Source of the DNA: a virus
Lineage: Duplodnaviria; Heunggongvirae; Uroviricota; Caudoviricetes
Length of the DNA stretch: 40,255 bases
IMG/VR virus record: IMGVR_UViG_2874951433_000007
Span: 1 to 40,255 of that record
Direction: 5' to 3' (one strand)
The notes beneath the pieces were generated by a model, which saw only the letters and a program-made list of their open reading frames with translations, made no database searches and was not told the DNA's origin. Below are positions 28,625 to 29,085 of this stretch, in pieces. A program made the position numbers and the translations under genes. The first letter of the stretch is position 1; every line of letters starts with the position of its first letter.

Positions 28625-28772
28625 GCTTCACTCCTGCTTTGGCTAGTCTGTAAACACCAACAAGGCGCTCTGCGAACGCCCTGTTATTTGCTGCGGCTAC
28701 CACTAATCCCTCAGGTGAATCAGGGTGTCGAATCTCTTCTTTTTCCTGGTATTTCTTACGACGTTTTGTCAT
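28611..28772 (-). CDS. Hypothetical small basic protein between cII and O-like gene
   Basis: Start at ATG 28772 with AGGAG RBS; MTKRRKKYQEKEEIRHPDSPEGLVVAAANNRAFAERLVGVYRLAKAGVKHGRR. Confidence 0.4.
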   Translation of the reverse strand: MTKRRKKYQEKEEIRHPDSPEGLVVAAANNRAFAERLVGVYRLAKAGVKHGRR

Positions 28773-28806
28773 AATTACTCCTGTGGATTGATCCAGTCTT
28801 TCTACA

Positions 28807-29085
28807 TCAGGCCTCAAAACTGTTGCCGCAGTCTTGAGGCTTTTCTTTTGTCAGCACCATGGCTACTTTCTTTGCCAGTTCCGCCAATTCCTCGTCTTCA
28901 ACACCCCACTCCAGCACAGCCAGAAGCATGGCCATCTTTGGGATAAAACTGTCTTTCCATCGCGAAATTTGCGATTCATTAATCCCTAACGCGTCGGCAA
29001 CCTTTCGCTGACCACGTACAGCAATTCGATTTAGGATGTTGCTTGTAATTGCATTCGCTTTCTTGCGAGTACTTGTAAGTTGCAT
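28807..29085 (-). CDS. cII: CII transcriptional activator
   Basis: GINESQISRWKDSFIPKMAMLLAVLEWGVEDEE matches recalled lambda CII core; start at ATG 29085 (AGGA RBS). Confidence 0.85.
   Translation of the reverse strand: MQLTSTRKKANAITSNILNRIAVRGQRKVADALGINESQISRWKDSFIPKMAMLLAVLEWGVEDEELAELAKKVAMVLTKEKPQDCGNSFEA
28811..28849 (+). terminator. Terminator of an OOP-like antisense RNA overlapping the cII 3' end
   Basis: Plus-strand hairpin gcctcaa(28811..28817)/ttgaggc(28834..28840) followed by ttttctttt; antisense to cII coding end, as lambda oop. Confidence 0.5.

Follow-up and report, generated by a model that had tools for sequence, protein, structure and literature searches.

Introduction

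In phage lambda, the antisense RNA OOP is 77 nucleotides (nt) long, forms a long 5′ stem-loop that reaches into cII, overlaps that gene by 55 nt and is followed directly by gene O. OOP is reported to pair with the pR transcript, after which RNase III cuts the duplex and the cII mRNA decays, and an excess of OOP is reported to push development to lysis (Krinke and Wulff 1987, 1990). The final 17 residues of lambda CII are dispensable for activity but required for OOP regulation (PMC3349717). In the related phage P22, small-RNA sequencing in 2026 detected a 63-nt species, P22C-oop, at 653-1513 reads per million and in P22-infected Salmonella samples only (PMC13397905, Table 2), and an OOP noncoding RNA was annotated at the same position in the transcriptome of lysogens of the P22-like prophage BTP1 (PMC7067206). 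Here we analyze the corresponding locus of a tailed phage (Caudoviricetes), IMG/VR virus record IMGVR_UViG_2874951433_000007, positions 1 to 40,255, a stretch of 40,255 nt hereafter called the window. We conclude that positions 28783-28849 of its plus strand are very probably the oop gene of a P22-like (HK620/mEpX2/IME10-related) temperate Escherichia coli phage; the feature as such is already known, as P22-type oop.

Homology to the oop RNAs of P22 and lambda

The locus comprises the following features:
28783..28849, plus strand: predicted oop RNA of about 63-67 nt, with its 5′ end at G28783 (lambda homology) or G28786 (P22 small-RNA sequencing) and its 3′ end at 28848-28849
28783..28805, plus strand: 5′ hairpin GUGGA..GAU-CCA-GUC..UCUAC (RNAfold), in the spacer between cII and a small open reading frame (ORF)
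28809..28842, plus strand: tO intrinsic terminator stem-loop (RNAfold, our own scan, compensatory changes in 84 relatives)
28841..28849, plus strand: U tract TTTTCTTTT (UUUUCUUUU), the opposite strand of which encodes K-E-K of the CII tail
28767..28775, plus strand: predicted extended -10 element of pO, TGTCATAAT (TG-n-CATAAT), identical to the lambda pO -10 region
28746..28752, plus strand: weak candidate -35 element of pO, at the left end of the P22virB-3 "promoter: oop" feature
28781..28796, no strand assigned: LexA-box-like palindrome CTGT-N8-CCAG, read from the sequence, across the predicted transcription start; lambda has CTGTTGATAGATCCAG at the same place
28807..29085, minus strand: cII (P22 c1-type), the presumed antisense target; Pfam PF05269 Phage_CII, 151.5 bits, E = 7e-45, full length

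Window positions 28786-28848 agree with P22C-oop (AF217253 14024-14086, minus strand) at 62 of 63 bases, the sole mismatch lying in the terminator loop, where the window has G28825 and P22 has C. The published P22C-oop coordinates fit AF217253; NC_002371 and BK000583 have sieA/mnt at those numbers. The locus is thus homologous to an experimentally detected oop RNA, and it also shares with lambda the block from the -10 element to position +14 of the RNA. In addition, the annotated genome of P22virB-3 (GenBank OQ031658) carries a promoter and a terminator feature, each labelled "oop; similar to phage lambda", which correspond to window positions 28747-28775 and 28802-28844, respectively. The first-pass annotation of this DNA had described the arrangement as that of lambda oop, and these three matches show it to be a true homologue.

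The P22 element shares with that of the window its antisense position over the final ~42-43 nt of c1/cII, upstream of a small ORF at the orf48 position, as well as the two-hairpin shape, the CATAAT -10 hexamer and the U tract. The two differ immediately before the -10 hexamer (TGT here, TGG in P22) and in the -35 element (TGGTAT here, TGGTCA in P22). The flanks differ further, with cII about 85% identical by eye and the small ORF unrelated in sequence; since the window and P22 diverge outside the oop block, this block forms a conserved island. Backhaus and Petri reportedly described P22 oop from its sequence in 1984.

The resemblance to lambda covers the -10 element, the +1 context and the first ~14 nt of the RNA, an intrinsic terminator within the 3′ end of cII, the LexA-box-like CTGT-N8-CCAG and the position relative to cII and the replication genes. 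By contrast, the window RNA, at ~66 nt, is shorter than that of lambda, its small 5′ hairpin is intergenic, its 43-nt overlap with cII consists almost entirely of terminator, the sequences of the terminator stems differ, and oop is separated from the O-like gene by a small ORF. The noncoding RNA OOP(BTP1), from the Salmonella prophage, is likewise antisense to the 3′ end of cII, and the window RNA is likened to it by position and not by sequence.

Another antisense RNA of the same phage group, P22 sar (RF00262), is also short (~68 nt) and folds into two hairpins, but it is encoded in immI opposite ant, at another locus and with another target. The sar model scored 14.6 bits at 28781-28846 (gathering threshold 43; E = 4.2), and we rejected it as a match. 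A search of the whole window against Rfam at the gathering threshold gave no match, and a search of 28600-29000 at E up to 10 gave only chance-level matches to sar and sR30. Rfam 15 contains no oop family. Nor is an oop feature annotated in Sf6, HK620 or ES18; Sf6 has only a "boundary sequence" there.

Terminator hairpin and U tract

The plus strand at 28764-28853 includes ...TTTTGTCATAATTACTCCTGTGGATTGATCCAGTCTTTCTACATCAGGCCTCAAAACTGTTGCCGCAGTCTTGAGGCTTTTCTTTTGTCAGC..., in which GGCCTCAAAACTG-TTGCCG-CAGTCTTGAGGC followed by TTTTCTTTT constitutes the terminator sequence. RNAfold pairs 28809-28842 into a 14-bp stem with a single 1x1 internal loop, A28818/C28833. The folding energy of this hairpin is -18.5 kcal/mol (z = -3.9), and none of 200 shuffled sequences folded equally well; the 81-nt stretch 28772-28852, which contains the terminator and the small 5′ hairpin, reaches -26.4 kcal/mol (z = -4.8). 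We then scanned the entire window, on both strands, for T-rich 9-mers with a hairpin immediately before them. The oop terminator ranked first among 16 sites, at -18.2 kcal/mol, and was the single site at or below -17 kcal/mol in the 40-kb window, compared with an average of 0.03 over 30 shuffles that preserved dinucleotide composition. The hairpin and T tract are thus confirmed as real and above chance.

A simple terminator scan of the window, which required a perfect stem, did not list tO, because the internal mismatch of the stem was disallowed. The hairpin and U tract lie antisense to the final 43 nt of cII, stop codon included (overlap 28807-28849; the cII stop codon is at 28807-28809 and its ATG at 29085), which bears out the first-pass claim of a plus-strand hairpin and T tract opposite the cII end. 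The RNA would accordingly stop itself inside cII, as lambdoid oop RNAs of the P22 subtype do, through the -18.5 kcal/mol hairpin and UUUUCUUUU. We also considered a bidirectional terminator that would act on pR transcription as well, and rejected it: read on the minus strand, the hairpin leads into CTGATGTAG, which is not a T run, so it terminates the plus strand only.

The second-best terminator-like site of the scan, at 26247-26279 on the minus strand (-15.7 kcal/mol), reads CAGGCCTGC-TGGTAATC-GCAGGCC followed by TTTTTATTT and begins about 30 nt past the stop of the DnaB-like gene (26308).

Conserved structure among related loci

Pattern scans of viral contigs (two scans) and of species-representative genomes (one) yielded 238 loci with the anchor CCTGT-NN-AT-N-GATCCAGT; the matches on genome contigs include Pantoea, Erwinia, Buttiauxella, Enterobacter and Dryocola. 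Two architectures were found: a long form resembling that of lambda, 77-82 nt in length and with a large 5′ stem-loop, and a short, P22-like form of 64-68 nt, in which a 5′ hairpin spans +1 to +23, the cII stop falls mostly at +25 to +27 and the terminator follows. We aligned 84 distinct short-form sequences (alignment A1) and used the RNAalifold consensus structure, because a structure written by hand on the MAFFT alignment would have lost its register in variants whose loop is 5 nt long.

The consensus contains 17 pairs, of which 13 show compensatory changes. The paired state is kept in 95.1% of cells; shuffling the columns lowers this share to 77.2%, and sliding the partners by 1-3 columns lowers it to 28-59%. 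Cells changed on both sides number 296 (110 in shuffles), and the covariation score of 0.557 (0.256 in shuffles) was reached by none of 500 shuffles, these being counts per sequence on a structure derived from the same alignment, columns 1-14 of which lay within the search anchor. All 11 pairs of helices 2 and 3, which form the terminator, show compensatory changes, and helix 1, the 5′ hairpin, is 98% paired, with two pairs changed on both sides. The short form thus has a conserved structure with covariation, as a lambdoid oop of the P22 subtype should.

The CII tails encoded opposite the hairpin take the form ...TKEK-AP/PQ-xxxxx-FEA with a variable middle (QDCGNS, KNGEFF, SCANS, ECGKH and others), and 46 distinct tails were counted. 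As the stem is kept while the tail peptide varies, protein coding alone does not explain the hairpin. The T tract is always present 3′ of the stem and on the plus strand only. Of the 238 antisense ORFs, 137 gave significant BLASTP matches to the window CII; the remainder seem to belong to other cII-like families (for example, 99-aa ORFs that end at the lambda-type tail) or to be short ORFs.

Upstream of the oop/pO block, these loci have 91 distinct 50-nt contexts, and the block adjoins more than one family of cII. Such a position next to many unrelated upstream genes fits a module-boundary recombination site; lambdoid modules recombine at the conserved block, which is also known as the "33 bp high homology region" or "bsq5 boundary sequence".

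Two further observations were made among these loci. A sub-class of short oop-like loci (L146, L151, L158, L161 and about 40 others) has a terminator of the form GAAAGCCG...CGGCTTTC, and the T tract after it, GCCTTTCTG, is interrupted; in those members for which an antisense ORF was resolved, its stop codon is at +15, within the 5′ hairpin, and its tail reads ...TAFYAN. At one locus (IMGVR_UViG_2778261069_000001), the end of an insertion sequence encoding MTKNTRFSPEVRQRAVRMV..., which resembles IS629/IS1203, takes the place of the oop body from 2-3 nt past +1, just after the CCTGT of the oop start. This locus (L011) would be a natural oop knockout that keeps pO.

Predicted promoter pO and 5′ end

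The pO of the window is homologous to lambda pO and is a predicted promoter. The block common to the two, TGTCATAAT-N-ACTCCTGT-NN-AT-N-GATCCAGT, runs from the -10 element through the first 14 nt of the RNA. The lambda sequence reads TTGAGT, 17 nt, CATAAT, GACTCCT and G, and this final G is the 5′ pppG of OOP at 38675, the position given for OOP +1 in PMC3349717, where the pO- allele replaces ATTAT (the complement of ATAAT in the hexamer). The distance from TGTCATAAT to +1 in the window, 7 nt, is the same as in lambda and places +1 at G28783; at the level of sequence, the window therefore has CATAAT over the start codon of the next gene and a predicted +1 seven nt downstream. The P22 species detected by small-RNA sequencing starts at the equivalent of G28786, 3 nt inside this lambda-homologous +1.

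The first-pass annotation had begun the RNA at 28772, a position that lies inside the -10 hexamer. The likely 5′ end, at 28783-28786, is about 11-14 nt further to the right, and from a start near G28783 the RNA would measure about 63-67 nt, not 78. That annotation had also left the promoter without confident identification; homology to lambda and P22 places pO.

Two -35 candidates may be proposed, TGGTAT at 28747-28752 with a 17-bp spacer (2 of 6 matches to TTGACA) and CTGGTA at 28746-28751 with an 18-bp spacer (3 of 6). Among the related loci, unrelated upstream coding contexts carry TTGAGT, TTGATT, TTGTAA or CTGGTA at the -35 position. CATAAT is present in 226 of the 238 loci and the preceding TGn in 174, counts that are partly circular because many of these loci were gathered by a pattern containing the CATAAT-region motif.

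The palindrome across the predicted start matches the 20-nt LexA consensus at 13 of 20 positions, compared with 15 of 20 for lambda, and its second half-site is CCAG rather than ACAG. A LexA site within lambda oop-pO is reported in PMC5869508, citing Lewis et al. 1994, and by analogy LexA may control the window promoter.

Gene neighborhood

Gene order in this region, cI / cro / cII / oop / small ORF / O-like / DnaB-like, was confirmed from the ORF list and Pfam. The genes around cII and oop are as follows:
29495-30211, plus strand: cI, S24 repressor (ORF list, Pfam)
29194-29394, minus strand: cro (Pfam Cro)
28611..28772, minus strand: small ORF of 53 aa at the P22 orf48 position, of the Sf6 gene 42/HK97 gene 53 type
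27734-28624, minus strand: O-like gene, with two clusters of 11-nt iterons inside
26308-27759, minus strand: DnaB-like helicase gene (ORF list, Pfam)

The oop element therefore occupies the position of a lambdoid oop, antisense to the 3′ end of cII in the interval between cII and the replication genes. All coding genes adjoining it lie on the minus strand, and the plus-strand ORF that overlaps it (28725-28946) has no Pfam match. There is no credible plus-strand gene upstream of the hairpin, in agreement with the first-pass annotation. The small ORF has no Pfam family either; its ATG is the complement of CAT at 28770-28772, and its Shine-Dalgarno sequence AGGAG, the complement of CTCCT at 28778-28782, directly adjoins the predicted oop +1.

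Over 20 kb, the window is most similar to the P22-like coliphages mEpX2, HK140, IME10 and HK620, with 96-97% identity over about half of the 20-kb query; as the identity extends over only about half, the genome is mosaic.

Within the O-like gene, 28133-28250 holds two clusters (28144-28176 and 28210-28242), in each of which an 11-nt unit, TTGGACAAC(C/T)G, stands three times in tandem; these repeats resemble the origin iterons annotated within the O genes of Sf6, HK620 and ES18. In the 5′ end of cII, a plus-strand TTGC-N6-TTGT at 29063-29076, pointing to cI, resembles by eye the CII/C1 site and PRE annotated in the 5′ ends of Sf6 gene 41 and P22 c1. The oop element ends about 215 nt upstream of this motif, on the same strand.

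Proposed function and alternative explanations

By analogy with lambda, we infer transcription from the window locus, an RNase III mechanism, an effect on cII and any control by LexA. Transcription would start near G28783 from a constitutive sigma-70 extended -10 promoter and end near 28849, at the tO hairpin with its U tract, giving an RNA of 63-67 nt with two hairpins. This RNA would be fully complementary to the rightward pR mRNA over the final 43 nt of cII and the 24-nt spacer that leads to the ribosome-binding site of the next gene. The duplex with the cII-containing pR mRNA would then be cleaved by RNase III and the cII message degraded, so that less CII would be made and development would be biased to lysis. 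Convergent transcription from pO may also dampen pR transcription into the replication genes.

Several points weigh against this account. The -35 element is poor, with 2-3 of 6 consensus bases, and the TGGTCA of P22 is stronger. Because of that poor -35, pO is absent from the output of the generic promoter scan of the window (at least 4 of 6 matches required per promoter hexamer), a miss that we do not read as evidence of absence. The -10 element and CTCCT double as translation signals of the small ORF, so their conservation is not independent evidence for a promoter. The 84 aligned sequences were pre-filtered as short partly by an RNAfold hairpin at that position, and their covariation is counted by sequence and not by evolutionary event. 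The cII overlap of the P22 type lies nearly all inside the terminator stem, whereas that of lambda extends over 55 nt; with the overlap locked in a stem, efficient antisense pairing is an assumption carried over from lambda. Moreover, lambda OOP has little or no role in the elimination of CII after SOS induction (PMC2327240), which suggests that its physiological weight is modest.

The main role of the locus might instead be replication control, exerted by convergent pO transcription against pR transcription into the O-like origin, with the RNA largely a by-product. For lambda, PMC3985674 describes a fall in pR-driven transcription when pO is active and impaired replication of phage and plasmid when pO is defective, and the window has the same layout, with pO about 540-650 bp from the iterons at 28133-28250 and pointing away from them. 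A replication role does not, however, exclude an antisense role. In lambda, cII was no longer inactivated once 45 internal oop nt had been replaced, although the first base and terminator were left in place (PMC3349717), and the covariation-supported 5′ hairpin suggests selection on the RNA itself. We consider it rather unlikely that replication control is the main role.

It is also conceivable, but in our judgement improbable, that the main target of the short form is not cII but the downstream small ORF and the replication genes. The accessible loop of the 5′ hairpin and the linker could pair with the spacer beside the next Shine-Dalgarno sequence, which makes a downstream target possible, and regulation would then proceed through RNase III cleavage or translational effects in the spacer between cII and the orf48-position ORF. 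If so, the P22-type RNAs would be a functionally distinct subfamily, found in several Enterobacterales genera and lacking an Rfam model.

Returning to a discrete oop RNA, we find it very hard to sustain the view that the hairpin and T tract merely end a longer plus-strand antisense transcript that begins in the O-like gene or the small ORF. The generic scan does list weak plus-strand promoter-like sites at 28144-28405, all with 9 of 12 matches, but they fall in the iteron repeats, and five were found where 4.8 are expected in shuffles; in P22, moreover, small-RNA sequencing recovered the 63-nt species, with a 5′ end 3 nt from the lambda-homologous +1. Least probable of all is that the block has no RNA function and is kept as a recombination boundary, by translation signals and by the constraint of coding the CII tail. 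In favor of this view, Sf6 annotates a 33-bp "bsq5 boundary sequence" at the oop position, the upstream genes beside the same block are many and unrelated, its cII neighbors belong to more than one family, and CAT and CTCCT also provide the small ORF with its ATG and Shine-Dalgarno sequence. Against it, compensatory changes preserve the terminator stem though the CII tail peptide varies, the T tract always follows on the plus strand only, and oop RNA has been detected in P22 and BTP1; a recombination linker and a functional oop, moreover, do not exclude each other.

Annotation and distribution

As oop is a textbook antisense RNA and the copy described here is nearly identical to that of P22, the scientific weight of the finding is small. 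Its practical value lies in annotation: the alignment of 84 sequences shows a distinct short two-hairpin architecture and could seed a covariance model for the lysis-lysogeny switches of prophages. At the block, the listed RefSeq records of E. coli name nothing other than "CII family protein" and "hypothetical protein". A match to the 121-nt oop block is present in 957 of the 5426 complete E. coli genomes, and in 284 it extends over at least 80% of the block.
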